From Antedon mediterranea (lineage: Eukaryota > Animalia > Echinodermata): a stretch of 64,000 nt of DNA. Location of the stretch: positions 16,324,871 through 16,388,870 of the forward strand of contig NC_092676.1 of NCBI RefSeq assembly GCF_964355755.1, written 5' to 3'. Of the stretch, positions 21,757 through 63,272 are shown one piece after another (within the stretch, counting starts at the first letter, position 1; each line of letters starts with the position of its first letter). Made by a program: the position numbers and the translations under genes. Under the pieces are notes generated by a model. That model saw only the letters and a program-made list of their open reading frames with translations, was not told where the DNA came from and made no database searches.

Positions 21757-21955
21757 AAAAAGGGTGTTACCCCATTTATTTTAACTACTGGACACCTCGG
21801 TGGTACCACTTGTATAATGAACAACTTCGCATCGTCACGCTATCGTCATATCGTAACGAAGTTTGGCATGCTCACTACCTACTCAAGTAACGAAATGCCA
21901 GCAGTTTGGTATACTGTAGTCTGAAAGACCCATGGAAAACATACCATGGGCACCC
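21757..21955 (-). ncRNA. Putative Pol III hairpin RNA, unit U1
   Basis: PSE-like 22001-22019, TATA-like 21973-21986, octamer-like 22163-22170, T5 at 21757-21761, apical GTTACGATAT-GACG-ATAGCGTGAC. Has an internal T4 at 21936-21939. Confidence 0.55.
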
Positions 21956-22628
21956 TAATTGATAATGATGATCTTATTTTATGTACAATAATGATAATAT
22001 TCACAGAAAAGCAGTGGCATTTTACCAAATATTTCAGTATTCTAATATATATTTGATTACGTTGATTAATTGTTTATAATATATAACAGATTATATTTTA
22101 AATAGACATCTTCATTGTAATTTACATTGTTTTTGACTAAAATTGATTTTAAACATATTTACATATTCATGAAGATTTACCGAGTCATATTTGTTTGAGT
22201 ATTATGTTATCTAAATTAAACAATGTTTATCAGAAATGTAGACATGCGTAGATAACCAAATAGTAAAGTTACACACAGAAACGTACAGTAACGTAGTTCA
22301 TAAAATACACAAAAGGATTCAATGTTTCGATATTATTTATAGGTTAATTTGAGTTGAGTTGACTACATTAGTCAACTTTCGGTTGATACCAATTTTAGGG
22401 ACTTGCCAGAAGTAAACATGTTAATCACCTCCTGACCACGAATCACAAAGCTTACCATCACAGAGGTAGGCTGGTATTTGCATCAAGTGCTTATCTTCTG
22501 CAAATTTAACTGAGCAACTATTAAAACATGTCACCGCTTTGACCACTAATCAACATAGGGCTACCATCAAATTACGATCAATTTTGTTGCATGCATTCTA
22601 TGTTAACGGGTGGATTGTCATTACAAGT

Positions 22629-22800
22629 AAAAGAGCTGAATGGGGTTCCCGTTTCATTTTGTTTTCATTCACACTACGGTATGATATCGTAACAGAAAGC
22701 GTTTATGATACTTAAACGAAGATCGTAAAATTACGATAAGTCATAACGTGTAGTGTTACCTCAAAATTTGGAACGTATTCGTAACAAACTGGTCATATCA
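22629..22800 (-). pseudogene. Degraded hairpin-RNA unit U2 (homologous to the 3' module of U8), promoter not recognisable
   Basis: CACACTACGGTATGAT..GTCATAACGTGTAGTGT stem and GGGGTTCCC end match 48974-49130. Confidence 0.45.
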
Positions 22801-24250: not shown

Positions 24251-24502
24251 ATTTGAGAAAAAAATGAATGAATTTATACTATCTGTTGGTCATGACCGAT
24301 GTGTGTGTACCTTACCTTTTATTTTTCTGCATTATATCAAAGAATAATATTACACCCTTAACTCTAATATGAAAGCAATACCAAACCGGTCTAACTAAAG
24401 ATAAAAACACATTTTAATTTGTATTTATTTTCAAGCAAAGCAAGAATTAAAAAGAGGAAACCATTTTTGTTAATTGATATGTATTTATAAAAAACATATA
24501 AG

Positions 24503-30500: not shown

Positions 30501-31605
30501 ATTATTTTATTATGATAAGGAAATCTGTTTTAAATGAGAAAAAGCCGTCCCAACCCAGATTTGAACCCAGCTATCAATAAACCTATAAAACAAAATAGAC
30601 CATATTGTAGCCAGACTGGGTAGCGTAGACTTACTTGAGGCCTAGGCATAGTACGATTAGCTAGAAGGATACAGGTCAACCCGTACCCATGCCATGCCAA
30701 CACGCTCGTACCCAAATTTTGGTTTACATATATCCAAAATTTTGGCTTACTCGTACCCATCATGGGCTGCCTAGTAGTAGTAGTAGTAGTAGTAGCCTAG
30801 CCTAAGGCAGCAGGCCCGGCCCTAGCCTACTACAACTTAAGTCTAGGCCTAGCCTAGTACTAGTAGGCCTCTAGGCCTAGCCTAGGCCTAGGCCCTAGTA
30901 GTTAACATCATACATACGCCCTAGAGTCTAGGTAGTATATTCCTACCTACTACTCACTACCTAGGCCTAGGTAGTAGCAGTAGTAGTTATTGTAGTAGTA
31001 TTATTATATTGTAGTATTAGTTGTAGCTGTCCGGTGATCCTTGGTCACTTGTCTAGATCCCCTAGTAGGCCTAGGCTAGGCCTAGTACGTAATTATTCTT
31101 CAACAGTCACACAATTCAGATTCTGCCGGCCGCTGATGATTGCTAGTGAACAGGGGGAGGGAGAGAAAGAGTTAGAAGAACTGAAATAAGCCGTGACGTA
31201 TAATAAACATCATACAAAATAATAATATAACTAACGAATCCGTATAATATAATAATGTTGTATGTTATAAAGTAAAGTAAATGCGTTTAATATAATACAA
31301 TTATATTATAATATAATGTATTTTATTAATAATATAATATTAAATGTTCATAATATAATGCTAAAACCAAATAATATAATACAAAAAGTCAATAATTTGT
31401 TACATTTTTCACATAATGTGATAAATGATACTTGACTTGACTTGACTTGACTTGATAATATATTAGAAATAGATATAATATAATGCTAAAACCAAGTAAT
31501 ATAATGCAAAACGTATAATTCATTACAATACAATATATAATATAATAAAAAAATGATATAATAATATAATATTTTGAATACTTCAGACAGCTGAGGCTTG
31601 CCATA
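24503..31605. mobile_element. 7.1 kb foldback element: ~3.5 kb inverted arms (24503-28014 / 28186-31605), ~170 bp spacer
   Basis: TATGGCAAGCCTCAGCTG..CAGCTGAGGCTTGCCATA ends; mirrored identical ORF translations (25719-26000 vs 30058-30339); TSD TATAAG (6 bp) or ATATAAGT (8 bp). Confidence 0.9.
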
Positions 31606-31616
31606 TATAAGTATAG

Positions 31617-34600: not shown

Positions 34601-36687
34601 TGTTTTTACAATAGTAATTCTTCCAAAAAAAGTGAGGTGTCTTTTCTCCCATGTTTTTAGGGTATTTTCTAATGCGTCTATTTTTTCTTTCCAGTTCTTT
34701 TGATAACAATATTCCTTATCATGTCCAACATAGATACCTAATATCCGAATTGGTGTGGATGTCCAAGAAATGTTACCATGTGTGTCCTTGCAGTCTCTTA
34801 AACTGCCAAGCCAAAAAGCATTTGTTTTATTCTTATTTAATTTTAATCCAGAAACCTCTCCAAACTTTTCAATAATACTTATGCTGTTATCTATACTATT
34901 TATATCCTTTAGAAAAAGCACAGTGTCATCTGCTAGCTGTGCAATCTTAATATCTTTAAATATACCATTGCCTGCAGGAACAATCAGGCCTTTGACCATA
35001 TCACATGCTCTTATTTTTGTAGCTAGGACTTCAGCTACTAAAATAAACAATAGAGCAGACAAGGGACATCCTTGTCTAATACCTTGGTGCATTGCAAAAC
35101 TTTCTGATTGCCAACCATTATTTGTGAATATACAATTTGTATTGTTATACAGTGCTTTTACCCAGTTCACAAATGAAATACCAAAATTGAATTTATTTAA
35201 GGCTTCTATTAAAAATGATCTATTGACACTGTCAAATGCTTTTTGGAAATCTAAACTTATAAGTATACCTTCAAGCTGTTCATTTTCCATGTAAGTAATT
35301 ATGTCCTCTATTAGTCTTATATTGTCACCACCAAAGCGACCTTTTACATACCCTTTTTGGTCATTGTTTATTATATACTTTGCAACTCGATGTAATCTTG
35401 TTGTAAGAACAAAAGAAGCTATTTTGTAGTCAATATTGAGTAAAGTGATAGGGCGCCAGTTATTTAAATCTTTGTGATCACCTTTTTTGTAAATAAGGTT
35501 GATTATTCCCCTTCTTTGTGACACAGACATTTCTTGTGTGGCAAAACCATAATTTAGTGCATCACAAACAAGGTCACAGATAAGGTACCAGAAGAGTTGA
35601 TAAAACTCAACTGTTAAACCGTCACTGCCTGGAGCTTTATTTTTTTTCATTTTCTTTATTGCTTGCTCACATTCGAAGAGAGAGAGATGACCCTCACACA
35701 TCTCTTGTTCTGCCTCTGTGAGTTTAGTTAAATTAACATGAGATAGGTACTTATCAATTGATTTGTAAGGAACATCTTGTTTTGCATATATTTTTTTGAA
35801 GAAATTAACCTCTTCCTTCAATATCTCTGTGGAATTTGATATAATGGATCCGTCCTGTTTTTTTTAATTTTTTAATATGTTTTTTATTACTATTATTTTT
35901 CTCTAAACCAAGAACGTATTTAGTGTTTCGTTCGCCATCTTCTATCCACTTTGCTCTTGACCTAATTTGAGCGCCTTTAGCTTCCAATAGGTAAATTTGC
36001 TCAAGTTCATTCTTTTTTTGATCTAATTCTGTTTCATACTGGATATTATTATCAGTATTATCCTTTTTCATAATTAAATCATTAATGATAGCAATTTCCT
36101 GTTGAAGTATTTCTTTTCTTTTGCATTTATTTTTATTTTTCATTTTCCCATATTTTATGGAGAATTCCTTTATTTTTACTTTAATCATTTCCCATTTATC
36201 CTTTGGGTTAAGTTCTTCTAATCTAGCTCTTTCTATTATGTTTTTGATGTTGTTTATATAATCTTCATTATCTAAGTGAGAATTGTTCATTTTCCATAAT
36301 CCTGGGCCTCTTTCTTCATTAGTTAAACTTATTTTTAAGGATATGGCTTGGTGATCAGACATGATTGACGGCCTGATATCACATGTGTTAACATATTCAC
36401 ATAAGTCGTTAGATATAAAAAAAATAGTCCAACCTTCTGTACGTTTGGGTGGATTTCCTTCGCCATGTGAATTGACATGTATCCGGGTTATTTTTTCTCC
36501 AGATGTCATTAAGATTCAGATTTTTCATAAAATGTGTTATTGTAAAAACAGAATTATCTACTCTATCGACACTACCTTTTTGGTCAAATTTTCTGTCTAG
36601 AGCACAATTCATGTCACCACCTATAATTATTTTATCATTTTTGCTTTCTTTGAAGTCAATAATTGTTTTATGTAAAGTCCTGAAGTA
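31617..36687 (-). mobile_element. 5'-truncated L1/Tx1-clade LINE (APE endonuclease-RT-zf ORF2, frameshifted, SINE-interrupted) with 1.4 kb 3' UTR and poly(A)
   Basis: GGDMN, RLDYFF, SDH, GPGLWKMN (APE); KAPGSDG, WRPITLLN.DYKI, LDFQKAFDSV, GIRQGCPLS, QLADD (RT, 34172-35821); CDTC..H...C (33053-33745); poly-T 31617-31632; direct repeat ATATAAGTATAGTT at 31605-31618 and 36690-36703. Confidence 0.95.
33883..34195 (-). mobile_element. tRNA-derived SINE inserted in LINE ORF2
   Basis: A box TGGCCGAGCGG, B box GGTTCGAGGC, core GGACTATAAACCGTAGGTCC (recalls Deu/Nin-type cores); near-identical copy at 63304-63631; LINE frame resumes KEP/ISYDDIINQSLWGN. Confidence 0.88.
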
Positions 36688-37453
36688 ACATATAAGTATA
36701 GTTAATGTATAAGATTATAAAAGAAAGGAAATGTATTAATGATGACATGTATAACAATTAATTAAAGATAAAAACGCATCTTATTTGTATTTATGATGTT
36801 ATTTATTATGTTAATTGATAACGCAAGTATAAAGAAAGGTATATAAGATTATAAAAGAAAGAAAATGCATTAACGTTAACATGTATACAAATTAATTAAA
36901 GATAAAAACGTAGGTTAAGTTGTATTTATTTTCAAGCAAAAGTAAGAATTAAAAAGATAAAAATTGTTAAAAAGAGAAAAAAAGTTTGTTAATTGATAAT
37001 GTATGTATCAAGAATATAAGTATAATTAATATATAAGATTATAAAAGAAATGAAATGCATTGATGATGACGTGTATAAAAAATAGAAAATAACTATGGTT
37101 AATAATGATAATAGGTATAGAAATAAATACAAAAATCATTAGTAATTCAAACAGATGATAACAAAATTTCAATTGCATACATATATATTACTGTTTTGAT
37201 ATGATGTTTGTTTGAAATAAAAGTGGGATGATGAAAAATCATGCTAAATTTCTGTCGAGAAACGCATGGCACGGAATATAGTCAGGCCATCCACAGCATG
37301 AATTGTTTAAGTTGTTTTTGTACATATGTTTTTTGTGTAATAACCTATCGTATTTTGTACTTTAATTGTAATATAACGCTCTAAATTAATTTGAATATAC
37401 CAAGAACCTGAAACATACCATTACACCATTGTGTAGGCAGAATCAGGTAAGTT

Positions 37454-37600
37454 AAAAAAAAGAAGGTTTCCTCGTCTTTAAGCAGTTACTTCGTTACCCA
37501 ATGCTCTTCTCCAAACGCTATGTAAATGACGTTAGGAAGAACAGCACAACAATACCCGTAGGAACGAAGTACTGTGAGATACTAACAAACCACTAATGAC
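37454..37600 (-). ncRNA. Hairpin-RNA unit U3 (family B), transcribed part only, separated from any promoter
   Basis: Near-identical to 42280-42425 and 47073-47220; T8 terminator at 37454-37461. Confidence 0.5.
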
Positions 37601-38279
37601 AGAGTCTTGATGACCATCTTTTGTTTTTTTTTTAATATTTCTTGAAATATAGTCATCACTTGATTTCTAAATTCTTTATTTCACCCTAAACAATATCATG
37701 CGCTTTTAGATTGAAGAGCAGAGAGCAATACAATTTACAGTAAAAAACAATGATTAATTGGTAAATATCTTGAAATAAGGTCAAAATCATTCAAGCGTCG
37801 CTGGAGTTAGCTCCGTGGCGTTAGTTAAGATAGGGTATATAGCTGTCGTTAATAAGCGCCACGGACGTAATGATTTGCGTTAATAACGCCATAAACCATT
37901 TGGAATTGTGTTTGTGTGTGTTGACTTTTATTCATTTTTAAACTTTTTTTTATTATTTCAATGGCTTTGATATTTTTTTGTTTGAGATGTGTTTCCTATG
38001 TTAGTTTTTGCCTTTTTATAGTGTTTTTCTTTAAAATTCAGACATAGCCTATAAAGACATAGCCTATTATGTGCGGCCCTTCAATAATAAGCAGACGTGG
38101 TTTCGAAGGAGATACGTAAAAGTACGCGAAAAAATTAATTGCATTAAAATATAGATACTGATTGACCAGTCCCTGGTGGCCACTCACTAATTAATATTCA
38201 ACATTTAAAAAAATAGCCAAACCACGCGAAATTAAAAATTAGGACATTCTTTATTGTTATCCGTTAATAATATATTTCT

Positions 38280-39826
38280 TCATAATCTGTTATTTTGTCT
38301 CCGTAGTCGTTGAAATACATGATGAGTCTGATAACTAAATTATCTTTGTGTGATCTTCCTAAGACACCCCTAGTCTGTGACATCTTTCCAGCTACCACTC
38401 GTCCACTTTTCAAAGTCAACATCTAACAGATGTCTTTCATTTTTTTTTGCCGGTTTTCCCACATCCTTAACTTATATTAATTTTGTGTTTTTTTAGTTTA
38501 TTTTGTATTTACTGTTTGTTTGAGGGTCCCTAATGATCAGCTGATGCTGGATGGACCACCCTCATAAAATATTGTTGAAATAAATAAATAAAATAAAATA
38601 TTGGATGTCTCGTTCTCGCCTCATTGACAGTCTATGAAGGCGTCTTTTGTTCTGCCTTTCTTCCTCTTCTAGTTTGTACTATTAAAAAAAAGAAGCTTAA
38701 ATTAGAGGCTTTTTATAAATAAAATAAGTCCACTGCCATGTTGACAATCACCATCTCCACTCCACCAACCAACCCTTGCTTATAATATTATATTATTTTA
38801 CCTGGTGGAATTTATTAGCATGTTTAATTCCTTGCATTAGCGAATTATTACGATGACGAGGATGGTTATTTTGAATATTGGTGAAGATTGATAGTAACTC
38901 TCTGTCAACACCAGGACCAAACGATAATTTCAGCTCATTCATGAGTCCGTATCTTGTCGGTGGTCCGTATCGACGTCGTTGGACAGATAACTGACTGTCT
39001 ACTGACATTTCCGATGCAATTCTGAAAAAAGAAGGAATATTTATCATCAACAATGATAGTTGAAGATGATTTGTGATTTGATCATTGACAAAAATTAATA
39101 CTTTATGGCGATGATAATAATGATGATGATGATGATTATTATTATAATGATGAGATAAATTAATTGTGATTATTACGGGTGATAATTACTTTTTAATCTG
39201 ACTGGTTAGAATATGTGCCTCGGCAGTCCAATCATGGTCACCTTTTGAAAAATAAAGTATGAATATATTAACAACTTTGATTCATTTTGGAAATATCTAT
39301 AAATAAATGACAACAATAAACAATATCTTAAATAAACGGTTCCTCTTACCTTCTTGGACCATCTTTACGTCGTCGTCCTCTACGTCCGACCCTAAACTGT
39401 TCCTGTCGTCAGAGTTATCCTCTGGAATAATGAGCTCATCGTCATTTGAATGGATCTTCAGCAATGAGCTGATCGTCATTGTCAGCAATCAGTTCAGCAA
39501 TGGGCTGATCATCGTTGTCAGCAATCAGTTCAGCAATGGTTCTCATCGACTTCTTCAGTGATCGTCGAAGGGTGGCCGAACGGGATTTAGACTTCCTTTT
39601 CTTGTCTTCCCCATCCTTAGTACCCGACAGCTTATCTGTGTCAATTGTCAACGCAGTTACTTAATCATCATCTGCTGTCGTGTTCTTAGATTCAGAACTT
39701 GGCCACTACCGCCGGGACATTTGGAGGATCAACACTACTTCCGTCTTGCAAATTAAATTCTTCGGGATTATCAGCAACGAATTTCTCAACTGAGTTGCGT
39801 TGACATAAGTTCAAAAGATTACCCAT
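38280..39826 (-). pseudogene. Spliced orphan gene relic (acidic/basic low-complexity protein, MG start)
   Basis: Exon-like blocks 39350-39826, 38802-39021, 38678 to about 38600 with GT-AG borders; FHQ|YKLEEEERQNKRR joins in frame; frameshifts and a stop in exon 1; CpG-rich upstream region 39895-40030. Confidence 0.45.
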
Positions 39827-40423
39827 ATGATTTGTAATTAATATAGATACAATACGAGATATGAAATCAATACAAATTTCAGAAAAGGTTTCGTTGATAT
39901 GGCGAATGCGTTCTTTATCGTAGTAACATCGACGCGCGTACAAGGCATCCATGCAAACAAAGCGCAACCGCTATGTGTGACGACGCCGCCCGCTACGTGT
40001 GACGCAAGATGGGGAAGGAAGGGGGTGGATGTCTTAACTATCGATTACAATATACTGTTATATTATATCCATACAAACAAAATAATTAATTTCATTTGAA
40101 ACAATTTTCATTCAACAAAAAGTATTACTATGAAAATAATTAAATTGATTATTAAATCATTATAATAATGTGTACTTTCAAATAATACAGAAAAAAAGTT
40201 ATTACACAATTTAAAAAACATAAAACAAAAATAATTATTCTGTACTAAAACCGTGATATTTTTGTTCATCTACCATTAATTTGGATTTACATTCAAAATA
40301 ACACACAGTACAATACAGTGCACTACTGTATAAAGAAACTATTGAATTCAAATTTTATTTATCAATTTGATTTGACAAAAGTATGCAAAACCTTTTCACA
40401 CATATTTAATATAAATTAGCAAA

Positions 40424-40880
40424 CTATTTCTACACAACTAAAATTTGTGAAAGCAGTGACAATAATTATAACACAATATAAGTTTATGTTATATTATTTG
40501 ATAATTTGAGTTAATTTTAATATATTTTATAATAATATTAATTATTAATAATAATATGTCTCTCTTGTTATTTAGATGATATTATTTCGATTAACATATA
40601 TTTTTAAACAAATCATACATATTCATGAGCTTTTACTGGGTCACATGTATTGATAATACAATCCAACATTGAACAATTTGATCTAAAAATAACATGAGAA
40701 ATTGTCAATACGGTATTAGAATACTGAAGTCAATAGACCCGACGAATCATTTATATATTTTAACTGCATGATACTACAAGCCGTTACGGTGACTCTGAAG
40801 AATAGATGAAATACATATGCTATCCTGATCATATTCAATATTTCAACAGTAAACATTAATGTCAATTGTGTAACAGGATC
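40424..40880 (-). promoter_or_regulatory. Orphaned type 3 Pol III-like promoter block (U4)
   Basis: PSE-like TGTCACTGCTTT at about 40450-40461 and octamer-like ATGAATAT at about 40619-40626; TATA mutated; paralogous to 42464-42850. Confidence 0.5.
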
Positions 40881-40892
40881 CTATCTTATTAA

Positions 40893-41973
40893 TCTATATA
40901 TAAATTTACGTAATGGCAAAATTCGGTAAATCATGCGTTACTTCTAGAATGTTTACTCGATGGTATATAAAGTTGGTTCGTACTTTCGGTACAGATTTTA
41001 ACCACCTGATGTAACCCTGTTTACTAATAAAATTGAGTTAGATAATTAGTTATTGACAATTAAAACGAATTTAGTTCATAATGTTGAAGACAGACCGATT
41101 TTATTAAAAAAATACTATTTTGATAGATTTAATATATGTTTAGGCCTATACAAATGTATTGATTTGTGATGATGAATGGAACATTCCAAATTATTTGGTT
41201 TAACCATAGAGGTATAGGCTTACCTCTATAATTTAACACAAGTAGGTAAATGTATGGGCCCTTTGGAGAATAAACATAAATAGTATTGCAATGCTGTACA
41301 ATACTGCAAATAGGTATTAACAACTTTTGATCGCCATTTGAATCGCAAATTTCTTACTGTGAGTGTTGGTACTGTTAGATATAATATAAACAAATATACA
41401 AATAAACTTTATTACTGTGAGTGTGGGTTAGATTATAAACATATAATATACAAATAAATAAACTTTATTATTGTATTACTGACAGTTGCTTCTCAACGTT
41501 TGTATTAATTAATAATTAAAAAATATATAAACGTCGTAGTGGTGTATCGTTACATGTACTTTACTATTTCAATCGACTATGACAGTGAGAGTTTTAACAA
41601 AGTAATAAATCGCAAATGTCTTACTGTATTTAGTGGTATATTATTTATAAAACATTACAAAAATATTTCGTTACTGAGTGGATAAGAATATATTTAAAAA
41701 TTGTTCCTCTTTGTACCTATCCTCTTCCCCATCCATCAACCCCAATGTTACATACAAAACACAAAATTACGTCCAAATAAAAAAAATTGAAAATTGAAGT
41801 TTCTCTCTCGGAAGTAATTCCCAGGGTGCTAATTTTGGTTTACTACATAAATCATTGTGTCTATTTACTCGTTTTTCTGTAAACGACAATGTATTTTATA
41901 GTCCTCGGTACGTACATTTGAAATCTCAAGTTTTTTTCTCACTAGAATTACTGTGTATTCGAAAACCATCTAG
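40893..41973 (+). mobile_element. Non-autonomous Helitron lacking the 3' hairpin
   Basis: A|TCTATATATAAATTTACG start and ACCATCTAG|T end; the hairpin segment is missing. Confidence 0.85.
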
Positions 41974-42279
41974 TATATGTAACTAATCATATCACGTATC
42001 GCGTGTTAAATGTTTTTATTCGATACAACAAGCTAATTATTCCTATGTTTACATTGGAGTAATACTTTGAAAACTTCAAAAGGCCTTTGCCATATTTTTC
42101 CTGTCTTGGTTGTCTTTGGCCTATACCATCCCTGCATCATTTTGGCAGCTGCAAACAGAATCCCCGTTGAAAAATAAAAGGAAGGAAGGTTTCCTTTGAA
42201 CTTTATAATTTGATACCAAAATTCTGACAACATATAATGCCATTCAACTATGTGTGTAGACATACATAATCCTGTATTG

Positions 42280-42442
42280 AAAAAAAGGTAAATTCTTCGT
42301 CTTTTAGCAGTTACTTCGTTACCCAATGCTCTTCTCCAAACGCTATGTAGATAACGTTAGGAAGAACAGCACAATATCCGTAAGGAACGAAGTACTGTGC
42401 AACATTAACGAAGAAACCACCAACGAAAGAAGGCTACTGCCC
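42280..42442 (-). ncRNA. Putative Pol III hairpin RNA, unit U5 (family B, ~163 nt)
   Basis: PSE-like 42491-42509, TTTAAATAAG 42464-42473, ATGAATAT 42671-42678, predicted +1 GGG at 42442, T7 terminator, no internal T4. Confidence 0.7.
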
Positions 42443-43799
42443 AATTTACGCGACATTGATCCTCTTATTTAAACACAATGAATAATAAAGTTACAACAAA
42501 GCAGTGACAATAATTATTAATTATCAAACAATACATTTATTTTACATTATTTTATTAATTAAGTAGGTGTTTATACATTTTACTATATTATTTTGTATCA
42601 AAACATGTCTCTGGCAATTTAGATGATATGATTTCAATGATTAACACTTACATGTTTAAACAAATTATACATATTCATGATCTAATAAGGATCAAACCAT
42701 TGTGATCTAAAAATAACATCAGAAATTTCCAATACGGATAAGAATACTCTAGCCAATGATATGATACGCATGCGTGACAAAAAGAGTCGAATTGTTAATA
42801 CACATTCATTTCCATTATTTTAACCGTGTAACAGGATCCTATTTTGTATGAATCTATAGGCCTATATATATAAATTTCATAAGGCATCGGAGTATATTGT
42901 GGGGAATAGTATATACAATTACATCGAGACAACTGATAATAAGACCTTTCGTTTGAAATCGAGTGAAACCCTGATAGCCGAGTTGCTGAGTAAGATGGCA
43001 AGACTGTATAACTGTGCGCTATTTGTGTCCCGTTAGGACCCTGATAGATGTCTGCCCATGTTGCAAGTTGTCTAAAAAAACGTCTTCCTTCTTAAGCCGA
43101 AACGGCCCACTGTGTCGCGGTTGGTATTATATTTGAATAAACGCCCGAAACACCTCCCCAATAACACATCACTGAAAATAATAATCGCCCATCCACATTT
43201 ATACGCACAATATTGTATTATATTTAGTTATAATTATACTATTTGTAGTAGAATTCATCGGACTGTTATCTAAAATTTACCAAGCATTTGTTATTCTTTT
43301 TTACCACTTTTCATATTATCTACTAGTGGATTTTTTTTAATTATAAATGTTAGCATATTATTAAAAGTAAAACATCAAAGTATCCCTCGAATACGCACCT
43401 CCCTCAAATTAACTCCGCCTCCCCACCCCCACCCTATAAGTGCCCCACCAAACAATAACAACTATACTTTAAAATGTTAATATCAAAAGACACTGTGAAA
43501 CAGGTTATATAGGTTTAATTAGTTTTACGAATATCAAGCATTTCAATCATGCAACCGGCCGAAAACGTCCAGACCAAAACGCCATTCTAAAACGCCATTC
43601 TAAAAATTTTTAGCCGAGTCATTATCATTCCGAGAACCATCGTCTACATGCGCATGTTAAATTTGGATATTCGATACAAAACATTGATTATGGTTACATT
43701 GGTGTAATAATTTTAAAAGGCCTAAGTTTGCCTTATTTGTCCTGTCTCTGCATCCTTTTTGGCAGGACAAAGATTTTGCTGCGAACAGAATCCCCGTTT

Positions 43800-43953
43800 A
43801 AAAAAAGGAAGTTTTCCTTGTTTGTTTTTTTTTTTGTCTCCTGACACATCGTTATGACGACGTACCTTAAAGAACACTGGTTTCGTTACGCTATCGTCAT
43901 ATCGTAACGAAACAACCTTTATTTAAGGTACGTTTCATAACGATGTGTCAGGC
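43800..43953 (-). ncRNA. Putative Pol III hairpin RNA, unit U6 (family A, ~154 nt)
   Basis: PSE-like 44002-44020, TATATAAATA within 43974-43987, ATGAATAT 44165-44172; near-perfect hairpin 43850-43952, A-rich linker, AGGAAAACTTCCT mini-hairpin, T7. Confidence 0.72.
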
Positions 43954-45597
43954 ACTAAAGTGATACTCGGTGATTTTATTTATATACAAGAAATATTAAA
44001 TTCACCGCAAAACAGTGACAGTATTTTCAAAATCTCTTGTTGGCCAGTTACTTTCAATGTTTTGATTAAGCATTATATTTTGTAATTAGCTATCATATTT
44101 TTTTTAAATTATATAATACTTTAAATATTGTTTCGATTGAAATTAACTTTTATGCAAATCATACATATTCATGCCTTTTTGCCGGGTCACTGGTAATTTA
44201 AAGATCACACTTTAACATAAACAATGTGAGCGAAAAATAAAAAATAATACTAGGGAAATTTCAATACAGGCTCTCATACGCATGCTTAAATAACTACGTC
44301 ATCATGATTTAGAGACTATTATAAATACTCCAAGTATTATTATTATTATTTTGACATAATGTTACTTCCGTGCGTACTAATGGTCTTTTCTGTCTGTATA
44401 CTATCGACACGATAACTCTTAATTTAGTAATGGTATTATTTGTAATCAAAGTAAAACTTCTGATTTACGATAAATGTTAGGCTTATGATATCAATTTGAA
44501 TGATTTTTAAAAATGGTAACAAGATAACACACCTCGTAATAAAAACATAGAAAAGGCCAAATCAAATAACAACATGCAGCGCGTAAAAAAGAAACAAATG
44601 GATCAAGAGTGACCAAGACAATTAATGAGAAATTACGTAGGCCTATACCGTCATGGAAGTAGTATTTTATTAAGTTAGATCAAGACAAAACCTTGCGCTG
44701 TACTAACTGCATTATGGTATGTATGTATGTTTCCAACGTGTTTGATCTGGGGTATTTAGATGTTTCACAACATTATATAAAACCAGGATATTTTGCCTTG
44801 CATTGCAATGTGCTGAACGATACCAATCTAAACACATAATCCATTATGCATGTGATCGCCTCCCGAATCTTGGCTTCTTTAATCCTAAAAAATAGCACAA
44901 ATAGAATTCAAAGTATTACAGATAGTAAACTTTAACATCAATAGTGTCACGTGTCTTGATTTTGTTCATACTTATTGCGATATTGCTATGAGCAAGGCTA
45001 CAACCAACAATAACAAACGAAGAATACAAAGAGTTAGACACGAATCTGTAGAATATTTGATTACGAATAAAATATCTCTTACAACAGTAAAGCCATCCGC
45101 AATAGCATCTTAGTAATTAACGCCATTATAGAGAAACTAGAAATAAGTAGAGAGTTATTTTTTCTGGAGAACTAATATTGAATATAGGTGAAAGAAATTA
45201 AGATACAGTTAACATAAGTTAAGACTTAACAATAATAATAATAATAACAAAATATACGTTAAGACAAAATAAGGAACTTAAAATAAGTTTAAATATACTG
45301 AATATCGTTTGCTAAATTAATTGAGAAACAATATAACAGATTTTAGATGAATCAAAATGTAGAAATCAGAATTGTTGGTGAAAAATTGTAAAATAAAAAA
45401 AAAATTGGAATAGTTATGATAATGTAAAATTAATCTTCACTTTGTTAGGTTTTGGTTTGTAAGAAATACGAAATAAAATAATTAAAAATAGATTATAATA
45501 TCATTGTAATGTTAAAAATAAGTAATTTATAAAAAAAAACGTTTCGTAAAGTTATTAAGCTTTAATATTAGGCCTAAGTAAGATTTTTTTTTTATAA

Positions 45598-45645
<48 letters not shown>

Positions 45646-45987
45646 TCTGAAGTCGGAGATGCTACCTCATCGTAGTAGACTGGAGTCAACATCATTGGTG
45701 AAACGGTACCAGTGATGGCTAACAGCATCACGCTAGATTGATTTGAAACAAGTCTGTATCTTGCATGTTGTACTTGTGTATGTAGCTTACCAATTTCCTT
45801 TACTTATTCTTGTTTTTTTCATTTATTTATTTTTTCATTATTTATTTATTTATTTTTTGACTAGGCTACTCTTGAAATGTTTTATTTTTATATACTTTTT
45901 GATTGTTTTTTTCTGGTGGAACTAGCCTCAAAGCCTCCCTGCTTATTTAAGTTTCTCCAGAATATTAAAGTGCATTCTACTTTCTTA

Positions 45988-46894
45988 GGGTCTGTTTCTG
46001 CTGAAAAAATCAAAATAATCGATTTTTTCCAGTCACCGCAAACCACAAAAATAATCGCGTTGCAATTGAAAATTGCTACGACTTTAATCGGTTATTCAGG
46101 TAATCGGTTTTTAAAATCACGTCATCATTCCCCCACAGCGCAGTTCAAGTTATGAAAGGCCGATGAGAGTTGGTTTGTTTACATCCTATCGCTGCCTAAA
46201 ACTCTCACATGTAGGATTAAAAATTACTCTTACGTAAAGCTTTATTATTTCTAAAATAAACATCTAGGCCTACTACCGTACCACATACAACAGAATAATG
46301 ATGTTATATTAATAAGGACACGTCGGCGAAAAAAGTTCGTTTCGCCGTTCGTTGGTTCTACCTTCGGCCTGCTAGGCCTAGAGGCTATTATATTTCTACC
46401 GAAACAAGTCAACAGACAACAGGCCTACTAACAAATGACATGTAAAACATCGTTAGCCTGGACTGGTGGTATGTAACGGGTGTACTTGTAACACAGAATC
46501 CTGGAGTCTCTCGGTATAATTCTCCCCCACAAAATAATAAAAATCAAATGTTTAACATTTGATTTTTATTCGGTCTACATCGCGATCGTGGTTTTGCTGA
46601 TCGTCGTCGATATCGCGCAAATAAACAGCATGCTTTGTGACGTGAATAAGTTTGTCATACTCTAGAGGTCAAAGTGAGGTCAATAATCGCTATTTGTGTT
46701 GCAGCTCAAAACTGCTCCGCAATAATCGGTTAAAACAAGAAATAATCGATTAAAACACGCAATGGATTGAGTGTTTTTAATCGGTTATTTTTAATCGGTT
46801 ATTTTATTTTGCGCCGTTTCTGCTGCCCAAAAATAATCGATTAAAAAAATAAACGGTTAATAATCGATTATTTCTGCTCAGCAGAAACAGGCCC
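45988..46894. mobile_element. PIF/Harbinger (Tourist-like) non-autonomous element
   Basis: TIR GGGTCTGTTTCTGCTGA / TCAGCAGAAACAGGCCC; TTA TSD; subterminal TAATCG(A/G)TT repeats. Confidence 0.85.
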
Positions 46895-47072
46895 TTAAAA
46901 CTCTCATTTTTGTTATTCCATAATGATGTATCTTATGAAAATAAATAAATATTTTGTAATTGAAACTTGTAAGCATATTTTGTAATATAACGCTTTAGGC
47001 CTAAATTAAGTTGGAGATCAAAAAACATACCATTAAATTCAACATAATTACAGAATAAGAGATTTAAAAATG

Positions 47073-47238
47073 AAAAAGGAGGAGGTTTCCTCACCTTTTA
47101 GCAGTTACTTCGTTACCCAATGCTCTTCTCCAAACGCTATGTAAATAACGTTAGGAAGAACAGCACAATACTCGCAACGAACGAAGTACTGTACACATTG
47201 TAGCGAAGAAACCACCGATGAGATATTACTATTAAACC
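47073..47238 (-). ncRNA. Putative Pol III hairpin RNA, unit U7 (family B, ~165 nt)
   Basis: PSE-like 47283-47301, GTTAAATAAG 47256-47265, ATGAATAT 47446-47453, T5 terminator; closing stem GGTTTCTTCGCT/GGTGAGGAAACC pairs fully only on the minus strand (three G-U). Confidence 0.7.
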
Positions 47239-47639
47239 TGACAAACACTGATGATCTTATTTAACCGCAATAAATATTAATTTCACAAAAAAGCGGTGAC
47301 AATAATTATCAAACAATAGGCTTATGTTAATTATAATCGCAGATTATATAATAATACACATTTTAATATATTGTATATTTCTTTTATGTCTTTCTGGTCA
47401 TTTAAATAATTATTTCGAATAACGTTCATTTTTGAATAATCATACATATTCATGAAATTTAATCGGATCACGTGTAACTAATGATGACATCATCTAACAT
47501 TGAAAGGAATGAATGAACAATGCGATCTAAAAATAATATCAGGAAATTTTAATACTGAATTGATCAAGAATAAGTAAATAGACCACTATGAGCTCTCATG
47601 ATACGCATGCGTAGATAAGCAAGCCTTACTTCACCCGAT

Positions 47640-48460
47640 TATTATTAGTCATAGTCATAGTCATATAGTCATATATACTTTATTGTCCATTTAAAAAACA
47701 GAAATGTGATTTGAAAACTGGCAAAATACAAAAATATAAAATACAATTTACAAAAACACGCACAAAAAGTTAAGAGGCTAAAAATTGTTAAAATTATATA
47801 AAAATTATTATTATTTAATTATATTATATGATTTATTATTATATTGAACTAACGATGATTTAAAGTTTATATAAAAGCATTAAAACTATAAAAATAAACA
47901 AAAGCGGTTACATTTTACCTTTGTACTCTGGAGTTATATAAGTGTATAGCATTAGGTACAAACGAGCACCTAAACCGTTTTGTTTTGGTATTAAGTGCAC
48001 GTAGTCTTATGCCAGAATTCATGGGAGCAAATTGTTTGTGAAGAGGATGTGTTTCATCATCAATGATACTTTTTACTTTTTTTAACACATTTTCTTTATA
48101 CAAGGATTCAACATCAGGTAAGTGCTCTCCTACTAGTCTAATTGCTCTATTTCCTATTCGATTAAGTTTAATTTTATCTTTTTGCATTGTATTACCATAA
48201 AAACAAACATTACAAAAAAGTATTACACTGAGAATTACAGAGTTATAAAACAATTTAAGTATAGTTTTGTCAATTTGTAGGTACTTCATTTTTCTTAAAA
48301 TAAACATCCTTTGGTTGGCTTTGCATGTGGCTTTATTTACATTATTTATCCAATTTAGCTTATTGTCAATTATACAACCCAGATATTTGTACTCATTTAC
48401 TACTTCAATCTCATTTTCATTTATAATCAGAGGTTCTAAGGGTTCTTTAATTTTCCTAAA
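47640..48460 (-). pseudogene. L2/Rex-group LINE 3' relic (DUF1891-like C-terminus) with 3' UTR and (GACTAT)n tail
   Basis: YKYLG.IID..L.W, ILKLFYNSVILSVILF, DETHPLH, RFRCSFVPNAIHLYN. Confidence 0.8.
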
Positions 48461-48973
48461 ATTATTAATTAAATTATTAAATTATTATTATTTGTATATT
48501 ATTACGTTACTTATAATGTTATACTTTCGTACGTATGATCTTTTCGGTCTTTAGATTTATTCATAGAGGTTTAATGGTGTATTTGTCAATACAAGTTGAA
48601 CTAAATTTGAATTTACGATATATGTAACATATCAATCTGAAAGGATTATTTTAAAACGTTGCAACAAGAACATACCACCTGAAAATCAAAACAGAGGAAA
48701 GCCCAAATCACATAATAACCAGGGAAGAGATTCCCTGTAATAAAACAAAATAAATCAACAAAAAATATAAGAAATGCTACTTGACAGTAGGGCCTACTTA
48801 ATAGCTTGACCATTTATGGCCCATGGTTTAGTTTTACACCTAACTCTTCCAAATTAATCAAAGTTGTTCTTTACCGACTTCTAGGACATTTAAAAGAGAA
48901 CGTTTCATTTCTGTTTGGAATTCGATTATATCATATTGTATGTACTGTATATTTTTGTATCATCACTACAAGT

Positions 48974-49230
48974 AAAAAAAGGGTTTCCCTTTTAAATGTT
49001 CACACTACTGGTATGATCGTAACGGCAAGCGTTCTCTGGTCTCTTAACCACCTGATCGCATTGCGAATATTGATATTGAAACGAAAGAACCCATTTCGAG
49101 TCATACAAGACGTGTCACCTGACAATTCGGAACGGACTGTCATTAACGGAAGACGAGCATCGTTACGGTATCATCATATCGTAACGAAGAGGCCTTACGT
49201 TAGAGCATGAGGCGGAACCGACAGTCAGGC
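48974..49230 (-). ncRNA. Putative Pol III two-hairpin RNA, unit U8 (family A plus second module, ~257 nt)
   Basis: PSE-like 49279-49297, TACATAAATA within 49251-49264, ATGAATAT 49450-49457; same predicted 5' end GCCTGAC as U6; AGGGAAACCCT mini-hairpin then T7. Confidence 0.7.
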
Positions 49231-49859
49231 AACCTGAATAACTCTAATAATTTTATTTATGTACATTAAATCTAAAAGTCACAAGTAAACAGTGTCATTA
49301 GCTAGTTATAAGTTATAACGTTGCAGTTATAAGCAAATTATCCTCGCTTATTTTGATTTTACAACTTATCAATTTCAATAGATACCGGGGGTTATACCTG
49401 GTCATTTAAAATAATGTCAATTGAAATTGATTCTTTTAACAGACCATAAATATTCATGTCGTTTGGATGACGCTATCTAACATTAAATACTACTGTAGGA
49501 AGTCAACTACTCACGCTATCAGGCATACACATGCGTCATTGTAGACAACTAAAACAAACACCCGATTCTGTAGCTGTCAGTACACTCAGTATGGAAGACA
49601 AACAAAAAAGATAATGTGTTTAGGCTAGACATCACTATGGATTAATGTAAAGAACCTTTCGTTGTTTTGAATATATTTTCTATTTTGACGTTGGTACCTC
49701 AAAAACTTATTTCACTCTTTTTGTTTGTTATATCAAAGGCCGTGTTGTTAATTTACATTTTTATTGTATAAGAATTTAGCTTGATTTTATTTCATAAAAC
49801 TGTTTTAATTTCTGCAACATTTTCAATTATCTGTACAGTACAATTTGAAAAATGTATAT

Positions 49860-51110: not shown

Positions 51111-51780
51111 TCGTCTTTCTGGAACTTGAAGCTGATTATCAATTGAATCGGGAACGTTTCGGTCCCGTTTCATCGAAGCTAATAACATGAAAAAAAAGAC
51201 CAACAAAAAAATATTAAAAAAAATTACTAAATTGAAATAAATAAAATACTACTTAAGTTAATCTGGATCAACCTGAGTTTTCGGCATGTATTGAATAAAG
51301 GACTATTCCATTATTATTTATAGGGGTATTAGTCAATGTGTTTAAGTTGGGTGTGCCAGGCTTGTTGAGGCTTCTGTTGTTCGCGAAAAATAAAACAAAA
51401 AACTGCTGCTGTAATTAGCCTTATTATTATTTTACATATCATGTTTTATTTTACATTTCATGTAATATTATTACGAATACATGTTTGTTTTATGTTTTCT
51501 CAACAGCCGAATCAAGTTATATATATAGCCTCTACAAATAACAAGAAAAAAATACATTCAAAATTTATTCACAATAAGGAGAAAACATATACAACTTATT
51601 TAATTTATGTTGTTTTAATTTATATAAATCCAAAGGAAAATTACTGAAAAAATGACAATATGCTGTGGGTATCAGTAGCTGGATCTCAATAGAGATACAA
51701 AAAAAAAAAAAAAAGCGAAACACTAAATCAAAACGATTATGTAAAACAGCCAGAAAAATAATTTATATGAATACATCCAT

Positions 51781-51968
51781 ATTGGAAATATTCTTTTTTT
51801 CAAACCAATAATTAGTAAACTAACCTTGACAGTTTCGCTGTCCTGATCGGACAGCTTCTTCAGACAGCGAAACTGTCAAGGTTAGTTTACTAATTATTGG
51901 TTTGAAAAAAAGAATATTTCCAATATACTTTATACCTACAAACCAGATGAACATTTTCAATCATGTTA
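51781..51968 (-). mobile_element. Penelope-type fold-back insertion with a minimal hammerhead ribozyme core (51826-51864)
   Basis: Minus strand CTGAAGA-A-GCTGTCC-GATCA-GGACAGC-GAAAC-T-GTC; about 60-bp inverted arms; 11-bp TSD AATACATCCAT at 51770-51780 and 51969-51979. Confidence 0.75.
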
Positions 51969-53447: not shown

Positions 53448-55455
53448 GAAGGATATGGCAAGTCAGGGGAGGAAGCCTTTAATAATATTTTATCTCACAT
53501 TTCTCAAATAGGTACAGTATGCTGGACAAATAAGTAAAAAGATTAAATAAATGGCTATATAAATTAAACAGATTAAGTAAGTTAAAATTGTATATATGTA
53601 ATATGTTCCTTGAGGCTTATTAAATAATGTTAAAGTTCTTGAGCCTTATATTTGAATAAAGTTTGAAGAATGTATATCTCGATCTATCGATTTTTTTCTT
53701 GTTATTTGTAGAGGCTATTTGATTCAACTGTTGAGAAAAAAACAAACATATAAATTAAAACATAAATTGGATATATTTATATAAATTAAAACATAAATTA
53801 AATAAGATTAAAATGTATATGTATATAAATCTTTTTCTTGATCTTTTCTTGTTATTTGTAGAGGCTACTTGATTTAACTGTTGAGTAAAAAAACAACATT
53901 GTTATATAGTGTAAAAAACGATATAATTTACAGACACATAATAAAAGCTATAGGCTAACTACAGCAGCAGTTTTTTGTTTTATTTTTCAAACACAGTAAA
54001 ATACAAAACAATTGGCACAATGACGCGAACAATAGAAGCCTCAACAAGCCTCTCACACCCAACTTAACACATTGACTAACACCCCTGTAAATAATAATGG
54101 AATAGTCCTATATTCAATACATGCCGAAAACTCAGGTTGATCCGTTAATCTTAAGCCTTTTTCATGAAATGGAAGACATCTTATCGATGAAAAACAAATA
54201 ATTTCGGAGGACAAGTTACTTAATTTAAACTTTGGACAGTCTTGTAGACTAAATTTTTACTGTAAAAGTGATTAACCTTAGTAGGCCTACTGTATGATTA
54301 AAAATATCATTGTTTGTTATTGAAAAAGGCTGGCATATATAATTTATAAATAAATATTAACATTTAAATAAAACAATGAATAAATATAAACGAAGCAATT
54401 AAAGAGAAATCAATTAAAATTATGTGTGAATTTAAAAAATCAAATAACTCGAAGGATATGGCAAGTCAGGGGAGGAAGCCTTTAATAATATTTTATCTCA
54501 CATTTCTCAAATAGGTACAGTATGCTGGACAAATAAGTAAAAAGATTAAATAAATGGCTATAAAATTAAACAGATTAAGTAAGTTAAAATTGTATATATG
54601 TAATATGTTCCTTGAGGCTTATTAAATAATGTTAAAGTTCTTGAGCCTTATATTTGAATAAAGTTTGAAGAATGTATATCTCGATCTATCGATTTTTTTC
54701 TTGTTATTTGTAGAGGCTATTTGATTCAACTGTTGAGAAAAAAACAAACATTATATAAATTAAAACATAAATTGGATATATTTATATAAATTAAAACATA
54801 AATTAAATAAGATTAAAATGTATATGTATATAAATCTTTTTCTTGATCTTTTCTTGTTATTTGTAGAGGCTACTTGATTTAACTGTTGAGTAAAAAAACA
54901 ACATTGTTATATAGTGTAAAAAACGATATAATTTACAGACACATAATAAAAGCTATAGGCTAACTACAGCAGCAGTTTTTTGTTTTATTTTTCAAACACA
55001 GTAAAATACAAAACAATTGGCACAATGACGCGAACAATAGAAGCCTCAACAAGCCTCTCACACCCAACTTAACACATTGACTAACACCCCTGTAAATAAT
55101 AATGGAATAGTCCTATATTCAATACATGCCGAAAACTCAGGTTGATCCGTTAATCTTAAGCCTTTTTCATGAAATGGAAGACATCTTATCGATGAAAAAC
55201 AAATAATTTCGGAGGACAAGTTACTTAATTTAAACTTTGGACAGTCTTGTAGACTAAATTTTTACTGTAAAAGTGATTAACCTTAGTAGGCCTACTGTAT
55301 GATTAAAAATATCATTGTTTGTTATTGAAAAAGGCTGGCATATATAATTTATAAATAAATATTAACATTTAAATAAAACAATGAATAAATATAAACGAAG
55401 CAATTAAAGAGAAATCAATTAAAATTATGTGTGAATTTAAAAAATCAAATAACTC
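53448..55455. repeat. Near-perfect ~1.0 kb tandem duplication (53448-54450, 54451-55455)
   Basis: Both units start GAAGGATATGGCAAG and end CAAATAACTC; only a 2-bp indel seen. Confidence 0.95.
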
Positions 55456-56076
55456 GCAGAGTTCAAATTTATAAAACCGCACAGTCTAATTCTTATACCT
55501 TAATGTGAGATTATATACTAATTTGCATGTGTTAAGTTAAGTAAGTATAATAAAAACACACTCTTCTCTGATAAAAGTACTTGACAAATTAATTAAAAAA
55601 ACACTAACGAAAGTATAAAATTATTCGATATTTTTTGTTTTTTTGGTGAGAGCTTTGTTTCTAATTATGCTCAGAAACAGTGATGTGTTTGCAATTGGTC
55701 ACATTTACCTATGGATAAAATAACAAAATACATTTCTGCGGACCAAAACACAATAAGTGTTTACGTAATTGTGGTGGTAAGTTGTTTTCACGTTCAACAA
55801 TATATCAAACCATTTGGAATCAAGTTGCAAACACATCTCATGTGATATAAGTGTGTGAAATAAAACTACTGCATAAAACAAGCAATTTATATTTATTTAC
55901 CAAAACCATACGCACAATAAACCAGCACAAAATATGCCATAATAAGCAGAGACAATATGCATACCAACAGCTGAATTACTTTAGGCAACCTTAAATTGGA
56001 ATGATCAGCTAGCAAAACATAGGTTGTATTTGGTCATCTGACTTAGTTCTGTTGTTATTGATTACAGTATAATTAA

Positions 56077-63272
<7,196 letters not shown>

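Follow-up and report, generated by a model that had tools for sequence, protein, structure and literature searches.

The window analysed here, i.e. the whole 64,000-nt stretch of DNA, contains six copies (with no more than one mismatch) of the hairpin-tip motif ACG-x-TAT-(4-nt loop)-ATA-y-CGT, compared with a mean of 0.11 and a maximum of 1 in 100 shuffled sequences, none of which (0/100) contained at least 6. The five tips quoted in an earlier note on this DNA (U5, U6, U7, U8, and U1) are all present on the minus strand without a single changed letter. The interval given there, 42309..49190, holds four of the six copies (U5, U6, U7, and U8) but not the U1 tip, nor a sixth copy with one mismatch, also on the minus strand, which was labelled U3; the labels U2 and U4 were likewise given in this analysis (Table 1). 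A search of the window with a model of the tip detected no further unit, the best other match scoring 18 bits.

Table 1. Predicted RNA units and putative promoters in the window (Tn, run of n T residues; the U5 RNA start was placed from the PSE position).
Feature	Positions	Strand	Predicted structure or elements	Motif and remarks
U1 predicted Pol III RNA	21758..21956	-	~199 nt: small 5' hairpin, 126-nt rod, end hairpin, T5	motif 21837-21854; internal T4 at +18
U1 promoter	21974..22171	-	upstream block 22159-22171, PSE-like 22008-22019, TATA-like 21974-21980	
U2	22629..22800	-	folded stretch homologous to U8 second domain (by alignment score)	no motif, no intact promoter
U3	37458..37621	-	U5/U7 paralogue, no intact promoter; 4-nt gap in basal stem	motif 37515-37532, one pair broken
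U4	40420..40740	-	promoter copy: upstream block 40615-40627, PSE-like 40450-40461, TATA changed	no hairpin behind
U5 predicted Pol III RNA	42283..42446	-	~164 nt: basal stem, side hairpin, apical hairpin, T7	motif 42340-42357
U5 promoter	42465..42679	-	upstream block CATGAATATGTAT 42667-42679, PSE-like 42498-42509, TATA-like 42465-42471	
U6 predicted Pol III RNA	43803..43957	-	~155 nt: 120-nt rod (18+12+11+3 bp), A-rich linker, end hairpin, T7	motif at rod tip 43888-43905
U6 promoter	43976..44173	-	upstream block 44161-44173, PSE-like 44009-44020, TATA-like 43976-43982	
U7 predicted Pol III RNA	47074..47238	-	~165 nt, close U5 paralogue, end hairpin, T5	motif 47134-47151
U7 promoter	47257..47454	-	upstream block 47442-47454, PSE-like 47290-47301, TATA-like 47257-47263	
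U8 predicted Pol III RNA	48977..49234	-	~258 nt: 120-nt rod, second folded domain related to U2, end hairpin, T7	motif 49165-49182
U8 promoter	49253..49458	-	upstream block 49446-49458, PSE-like 49286-49297, TATA-like 49253-49259	

On the minus strand, five of the six tip copies belong to gene-like units with a full set of elements: an upstream block, a PSE-like element, a TATA-like element, and a folded domain of ~120 nt, followed by a linker rich in A, a small hairpin at the end, and a T-run. As predicted from these elements, the layout matches that of RNA polymerase III type-3 (U6-like) genes, in which a PSE, together with a TATA box, lies upstream at a fixed spacing (PMC1761439); the labels DSE, PSE, and TATA were assigned by position and consensus rather than by reference to the U6 promoter of Antedon mediterranea itself. 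The PSE-like/TATA-like cassette, searched for with a pattern derived from the units themselves, occurs five times on the minus strand and never on the plus strand, and each occurrence heads a motif unit. The two elements are 38-39 nt apart in five of the six motif units, the upstream block is located 152-170 nt above the PSE in all six promoters, and the promoters share 47-67% identity. A run of T5-T8 ends all six units, the 3' tails of which all exceed 20 nt. The bodies of the units other than U1 are free of T4, which is weak evidence, as the chance of this is 0.09-0.22 for each; the internal T4 of U1 could stop Pol III. The promoter and terminator context was absent from the earlier note.

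The remaining units appear to be broken. U3, in which alone a motif pair is broken, is also the copy that lacks an intact promoter, and it is likely decaying. U2 aligns with the second domain of U8 with a score of 80 (mean of shuffles, 36; largest among 1000, 66) and has a folding z of -2.05. The idea that the U4 promoter and the U3 body are the halves of one split gene was not supported, as the region upstream of U3 aligned no better than shuffles. An ORF on the plus strand over U8 (48806-49210) has no Pfam match.

The stems below the tip were described earlier as otherwise unrelated, a statement that is true of the arm middles of U1, U6, U8, and the U3/U5/U7 type (6-15 of 36 positions identical in register) but not of U3, U5, and U7, which are 92-95% identical (U5 vs U7, 95% over 98 nt; U3 vs U5, 92% over 106 nt). 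Because U3, U5, and U7 are close paralogues, the copies represent four types of stem and two lineages of the tip rather than five independent cases. Nothing but the tip is common to all six copies, 29 nt around it are common to U1, U6, and U8, and the stem ends are also alike between U6 and U8, which share the offset of the tip (+53) and the stem length and differ in their middles. The earlier claim that the lower stems nevertheless pair is borne out by folding z values of -11.5 (U6), -6.4 (U5), -5.2 (U1), -5.0 (U7), -4.0 (U8), and -2.5 (U3). The folded domain spans 117-126 nt in all six units, the minus strand is the better-folding strand in five of them, and each unit contains 1-10 G-U pairs. 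Uninterrupted helices of >10 bp are present in U6 only, those of the other five units being 10 bp or less, and two folds of similar energy, which free or hide one strand, are predicted for U5, U7, and U3.

The motif forms the core of a hairpin tip of 13 pairs, seven of which are invariant and two of which are swapped on both sides between the unit groups. Since these swaps separate only two lineages, i.e. one split, they represent two events at most and do not amount to significant covariation. The x/y pair was reported to be always non-Watson-Crick, and this is the case in all six copies; in three, however, x and y form a U-G wobble with a predicted pairing probability of 0.92-1.0, and a true mismatch is found only in U1, U6, and U8. 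Readings of the tip as a K-loop, an H/ACA element, a telomerase template, or an ADAR site, assessed by eye against consensus sequences, were dropped, as none holds in both lineages.

Within the U3/U5/U7 type, the cores share 80-100% identity, whereas the segments starting 80 nt past the motif start share 40-58%, random pairs sharing 46%. The presence of near-identical cores beside flanks that have decayed to the random level suggests, at the sequence level, that selection has acted on the cores. Changes affect two of 68 paired columns vs nine of 24 unpaired columns, a comparison that hinges on the chosen fold, as a side hairpin can arise in the variable part; this side hairpin is kept in all three copies. 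The arms are near-invariant on both strands. In a contig from another sample, the U7 body is joined to a U5-like upstream region, and recombination between copies could thus account for part of the identity among U3, U5, and U7.

In the reading that we prefer, the motif is the tip of the products of duplicated genes that are likely read by Pol III, and their hairpin RNAs of 155-260 nt likely act whole through one common protein bound at the tip. We give this reading as a whole a probability of slightly under one half (~0.47). Its gene-family part appears highly probable from the sequence, and a function as protein ligands, given such a family, seems a little better than even. The positions of the upstream blocks and known snRNA promoters suggest that the blocks correspond to DSE, PSE, and TATA, that SNAPc and TBP would recruit Pol III there, with a start ~63 nt below the PSE, and that La would bind the U-tail. 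The pattern of conservation is consistent with a protein that would read the tip of 13 pairs, in which the x/y pair is distorted and lies three pairs beneath a free loop of 4 nt, and with an imperfect lower stem that would provide a duplex surface of fixed length and paralogue-specific sequence. By analogy with snaR and NF90, with nc886, PKR, and OAS1, and with adenovirus VA RNA, the RNAs would tune or sequester a double-strand-RNA-binding protein. The idea of a constant handle on variable duplexes, put forward in the earlier note, fits the data in that one tip of 13 pairs is common to all six copies and, in U6 and U8, sits at the same offset on stems with differing middles, but it does not extend to the near-invariant arms within the U3/U5/U7 type.

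One close resemblance is to the snaR RNAs, which are ~117 nt long, are encoded in tandem repeats, end in an A-run and then a U-run, have a common apical stem-loop, and bind NF90 (excerpt of PMC2094060). The crinoid units share a stable hairpin of ~117-120 nt, duplicated tandem paralogues, the A-run followed by the U-run, and a common apical stem-loop with them (excerpts of PMC2094060 and PMC8127991). However, snaR is Alu-derived, has an intragenic promoter, and is confined to great apes, whereas the units are found in a crinoid, have PSE/TATA-like elements upstream and no A or B boxes, and possess a sequence-conserved tip, paralogues that have diverged far more, and an additional end hairpin (same excerpts). 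A second likeness is to nc886 (vtRNA2-1) and the vault RNAs, structured Pol III RNAs with an active apical stem-loop, through which nc886 acts on PKR and OAS1, and with two conformers, as predicted here for U3, U5, and U7; their internal A and B boxes are absent from the units, and no Rfam Vault match was obtained (excerpts of PMC10498592 and PMC10491885). One tip kept on four stem types suggests a family of predicted small RNAs, as yet undescribed, in this feather star (crinoid).

It is somewhat unlikely that the same Pol III hairpins instead serve as small-RNA precursors, which would be trimmed of their tails and cut by Dicer into paralogue-specific miRNA- or siRNA-like products, the tip being a handle for processing. 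Such a precursor would likewise be near-invariant on both strands, as is seen within U3/U5/U7, and U6 contains a near-perfect duplex of 18+12 bp. Precedents exist in miR-snaR, which derives from tail-less snaR-A (excerpt of PMC8127991), and in the Pol III-transcribed, Microprocessor-independent mir-1829 family of Caenorhabditis elegans, which comprises several hairpin genes and includes an upstream T4 that does not halt transcription, as U1 would need (excerpt of PMC12487709). However, mir-1829 has an A/B-box promoter and a 3' flank that is very short, and its Dicer products are proven, whereas the crinoid units have long tails and interrupted stems (same excerpt), and tailed, full-length snaR-A was not diced in vitro (excerpt of PMC8127991). 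By our reading, elements of the GYM type are ordered G, Y, and mismatch from the loop, the opposite of the order in the tip (excerpt of PMC10899750). A duplex of ~22 bp with a short 3' end, a feature of Dicer-processed Pol III hairpins, is absent from the units, although U6 would qualify if trimmed. The 4-nt loop is also small by the standards of pre-miRNAs, and no miRNA family was matched at its Rfam cut-off. The proposal of the earlier note that the arms yield guides or siRNA-like products was not upheld, given the limitation of >10-bp helices to U6, the tails of >20 nt, the base-paired state of the arms, and the lack of any arm match elsewhere in the window, and the units are a doubtful source of siRNAs. 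A broader version, in which the ~120-nt rod of fixed length with its constant protein handle would define a Pol III RNA class new to animals whose paralogue-specific arms would be released as small RNAs or used as guides, i.e. a natural family of modular shRNA-like cassettes in echinoderms, is unlikely.

That the crinoid units represent a known kind of type-3 RNA (Y RNA/sbRNA, 7SK, or vault RNA), so diverged as to lie beyond the reach of Rfam, is in our view quite unlikely. Y RNAs and 7SK do use type-3 promoters, the sbRNAs form multi-gene families of Pol III stem-loop RNAs that, like the Y RNAs, carry a U-tail (excerpt of PMC4726728), and the vault RNA of sea urchin is poorly known. Y RNAs and sbRNAs, however, keep their joined ends constant (bulged C, GUG-CAC) and vary the loop, whereas the crinoid units keep the tip and vary the stems (same excerpt). 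The Ro60 site, i.e. a bulged C with an opposite bulge in the terminal stem, is absent from the predicted folds, and UUAUC, a single-stranded loop motif in the Y RNAs and sbRNAs, occurs in one of the six units, there within a helix. The units share with 7SK an upstream PSE/TATA promoter, joined ends, and a 3' hairpin ahead of the U-run, which resembles the LARP7 site on impression only, but they lack the GAUC-GAUC stem for HEXIM, are shorter than fly 7SK (444 nt), and comprise several diverged genes instead of one or two (excerpt of PMC8406779). GAUC is absent from five of the six units, and, as the fold is predicted, the two copies in the second domain of U8 do not pair with one another. No A box was found in any of the six units, and B-box look-alikes with one mismatch to the consensus are scattered at unrelated places in three. 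Rfam gave no match at the gathering score over the whole window, and ARAGORN predicted no genes there. At E values up to 10, searches of U1, U2, and U5-U8 gave only generic hairpin and snoRNA look-alikes far below the cut-offs (7, 4, and 3 rows) and no Y, sbRNA, 7SK, or vault family.

A neutral origin, in which the tip is inherited sequence kept alike by recent duplication and gene conversion, or a palindromic DNA-binding site, in decaying units whose RNA has no role, is distinctly improbable. The promoter identities indicate one ancestor for all units, U2, U3, and U4 look broken, the hybrid contig suggests exchange between copies, and the motif, like the DNA site of a dimer, is an inverted repeat in which a position is free. 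Against this, identity falls sharply at the edges of the folded cores, changes in U3/U5/U7 avoid the shared helices, the side hairpin of the variable part persists, G-U pairs favour one strand, and the exact spacing is kept in five promoters. A SINE or other dispersed repeat, whose many copies would lack upstream flanks in common, was rejected, as the upstream flanks were co-duplicated with the units. There is very little chance that the variable arms are antisense guides opening onto other RNAs, with the tip holding an enzyme in the manner of H/ACA RNAs, since, despite the same tip and rod length with differing middles in U1, U6, and U8 and the alternative folds of U5, U7, and U3, the arms are paired (almost perfectly in U6) with no open pocket in common, have no complement beyond chance within the window, and match no H/ACA family.

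Known animal genes with U6-type promoters form a short list, mostly from vertebrates, flies, and worms. Crinoids are sister to all other echinoderms, and a multi-gene family of such hairpin RNAs among them would, if true, lengthen this list and show that RNAs like snaR and nc886 can originate outside primates. Both the promoter cassette and the tip motif can be used to search other echinoderm genomes, the tip could serve as bait for the partner protein, and the unit promoters could be used to express hairpin or guide RNAs in an animal that is emerging as a model.

Scans of metagenomes with two exact patterns gave 0 and 0 matches and thus revealed no homologue outside this genome. A 16-base pattern matched 12 loci (six distinct sequences) in viral contigs; none of these continues into a long matching stem within the 102 bases viewed, and the six that were scored reach 25.8 bits or less with the tip model, so they were taken as chance matches. 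Contig depth over U5, the U6 promoter, and the U7 promoter is near the lowest in the stretch, depth being a hint only. Over positions 37000-48000, which take in U3-U7, all four sequencing runs viewed (of five listed), including the one labelled 'RNA?', have a DNA-like profile.

The tip pattern ACGnTATnnnnATAnCGT, representing the apical motif ACG-x-TAT-(4-nt loop)-ATA-y-CGT, has six matches in the window at ≤1 mismatch, compared with a chance mean of 0.11, and none of 100 shuffled sequences reached six. Four matches lie within 42309..49190, where the earlier note had described a shared minus-strand tip on otherwise unrelated stems, and the others at 21.8 kb (hairpin unit U1) and 37.5 kb (U3). 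The quoted tip letters agree with the sequence, and the shared tip stands with six copies, but the stems are not all unrelated: those of U3, U5 and U7 are 92–95% identical over 86–106 nt, whereas the mid-arms of the four stem types are identical in register at 6–15 of 36 positions. In the alignment of the six copies, the tip comprises 13 pairs and is thus wider than first described; seven pairs are invariant, two have both bases swapped (A-U to U-A and C-G to G-C), one changes on one side, and three contain unpaired cells. Pairing extends to 88.5% of the 78 cells, compared with 36–51% when the alignment is slid. Since each both-sided swap separates U1/U6/U8 from U3/U5/U7, the swaps represent two events at most. 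The opposed positions x/y are U-G and predicted to pair in U3/U5/U7, and A-G or A-C and unpaired in U1/U6/U8. The tip-helix word TTCGTT recurs lower in the stems of U1 (two copies), U5 (three) and U8 (two), with the U2 body also named, as if the RNAs had grown via internal duplication of one block.

Hairpin units and neighbouring features in the window
Feature	Position	Strand	Details
Integrin-alpha-like gene	about 11.5-15.8 kb	minus	recognised by eye
U1	21758..21956	minus	
U2	22629..22800	minus	
Fold-back-like element	24489-31622		large inverted duplication; arms of 2.4 kb and 1.05 kb, 93-95% identity
LINE-like element	33053-36509	minus	several ORFs; RVT_1 and zf-RVT matches
U3	37458..37621	minus	
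Exon-like stretches	38500-40000	minus	between U4 and U3; contig depth low
U4	40420..40740	minus	
U5	42283..42446	minus	
U6	43803..43957	minus	
DNA downstream of U5 and U6	42000-42196; 43651-43819		related, 67% over 199 nt
Inter-unit DNA	44428-44573; 48572-48719		related, 71% over 156 nt
935-nt element	45970-46906		between U6 and U7; skipped by some contigs in 3 of 4 runs
U7	47074..47238	minus	
U8	48977..49234	minus	
Inverted repeat	51779-51926		perfect; 2 x 64-nt arms, 20 nt between
Tandem duplication	53448-55459		1005 nt, 99.5% identity
GART exon	56.4-56.7 kb	plus	100% identity to Antedon mediterranea protein, 82% to Anneissia japonica (crinoid) protein
Inverted pair, GART region	57029-57082; 57270-57323		54 nt, perfect, about 190 nt apart

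Five of the six tips reside in minus-strand units of common layout. In the 5′ to 3′ direction, these contain the block CATGAATATGTAT, TGTCACTGCTTT or a close variant 152–170 nt on, a TAAATAA-type box 38–39 nt after TGTCACTGCTTT and a folded domain about 25 nt further; an A-rich linker then leads to a small hairpin and finally to 5–7 consecutive T. By position, we term the three boxes DSE-like, PSE-like and TATA-like, and the first presumably resembles an octamer. The TGTCACTGCTTT-type and TAAATAA-type boxes occur together, on either strand, only at the five unit sites from which the pattern was drawn. Constant PSE–TATA spacing marks Pol III promoters of the snRNA type, as described in PMC1761439. 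Among T5 runs, an end-hairpin pattern picked 4 of 289 for the minus strand, each of them a unit end (those of U2, U5 and U7 were missed), and none of 268 for the plus strand. Counting against Pol III units are a T4 at +18 in U1 and the fact that the T4-free unit bodies are individually unremarkable. Depth in the DNA-like runs is near the lowest of the stretch over U5 and the U6 and U7 promoters (347–390 in run X5, versus 10^4 to 10^6 over repeats); the bins of the U6 and U7 bodies overlap repeats and are hence uninformative.

A folded domain of 117–126 nt is predicted in all six units (folding z, −2.5 to −11.5), and the minus strand folds better in five. U1, U6 and U8 are predicted to form rods whose tip lies about 50 nt from the base (offset exactly +53 in U6 and U8), and a three-way junction and a rod of similar energy are predicted for U5 and U7. 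Both ends of the stem are common to U6 and U8, and weak 3′-arm similarity links U1 with U6 and U6 with U8. U3/U5/U7 share a 98-nt core (80–100% identity), while their segments beginning 80 nt beyond the start of the motif are 40–58% identical, like random pairs (46%). In their rod fold, variation affects 2 of 68 paired columns versus 9 of 24 that are unpaired (p = 6e-5), but the fold was derived from the same sequences, and the variable portion of the domain also retains a side hairpin in each of the three. U3, which has no intact promoter, is the sole copy whose tip contains a broken pair; U4 consists of a promoter with no body, and U2 is related to the second domain of U8. The related DNA downstream of U5 and U6, despite their different RNA body types, is further evidence of common descent. 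In one contig from another sample, the U7 body is joined to a U5-like upstream region, which points to exchange between copies or to the existence of another copy.

Judged from sequence, these units probably form a gene family of Pol III type 3, as yet undescribed, whose hairpin RNAs share a conserved tip. Pol III would transcribe them from the upstream promoter, a protein would recognise the tip, and the lower stem would provide a duplex that is fixed in length but distinct in each paralogue, the full-length RNA possibly engaging a double-strand-RNA-binding protein as its ligand or decoy. We give this whole reading a probability of about 0.47. The handle-plus-variable-arm design proposed in the earlier note survives in the conserved tip and differing mid-arms, whereas the guides or siRNA-like products that it suggested are less favoured. 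That the hairpins are Pol III-made precursors of small RNAs cut by Dicer, for which PMC8127991 and PMC12487709 provide precedents, would fit U6 and the near-invariant arms of U3/U5/U7; it seems unlikely, however, given that a helix of >10 bp is absent from five of the six units, that all units carry tails, that snaR-A with a tail escaped dicing in vitro (PMC8127991), and that the tip order mismatch-C-G runs opposite to that of the GYM motif, as we interpret PMC10899750. The remaining readings are judged weaker: a diverged Y, 7SK or vault RNA is improbable, neutral inheritance or a DNA site slightly more so, and arms acting as antisense guides the least probable.

In mode of working, the hairpin RNAs would be nearest to snaR and nc886. 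According to PMC2094060, snaR RNAs are about 117 nt long, are encoded in tandem, carry an A-run and then a U-run, share an apical stem-loop and are NF90 ligands; the comparison with nc886 draws on PMC10498592. Membership of either is ruled out by the absence of internal boxes and the wrong lineage. Tested against published features, the units also fail as Y/sbRNAs (PMC4726728), as 7SK (GAUC; PMC8406779) and as vault RNAs (A/B boxes; PMC10491885). Rfam yielded zero family matches, and two exact-pattern metagenome scans found no homologue outside the Antedon mediterranea genome. In the literature covered, such RNAs are not described from crinoids or any other echinoderms, although an entry in one of the existing surveys of 7SK, vault and Y RNAs from invertebrates could change this.

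The window consists of AT-rich DNA from an animal, which the GART exon identifies as a crinoid, and the units sit between the integrin-alpha-like gene and GART with many repeats around. The exon-like stretches are perhaps the gene of an inserted element, and the 935-nt element is probably a high-copy repeat whose insertion is polymorphic. The tandem duplication is either very recent or an assembly artefact. The perfect inverted repeat might represent a young MITE or a fold-back introduced in assembly, and is unlike the Pol III units because it contains a T8 run.
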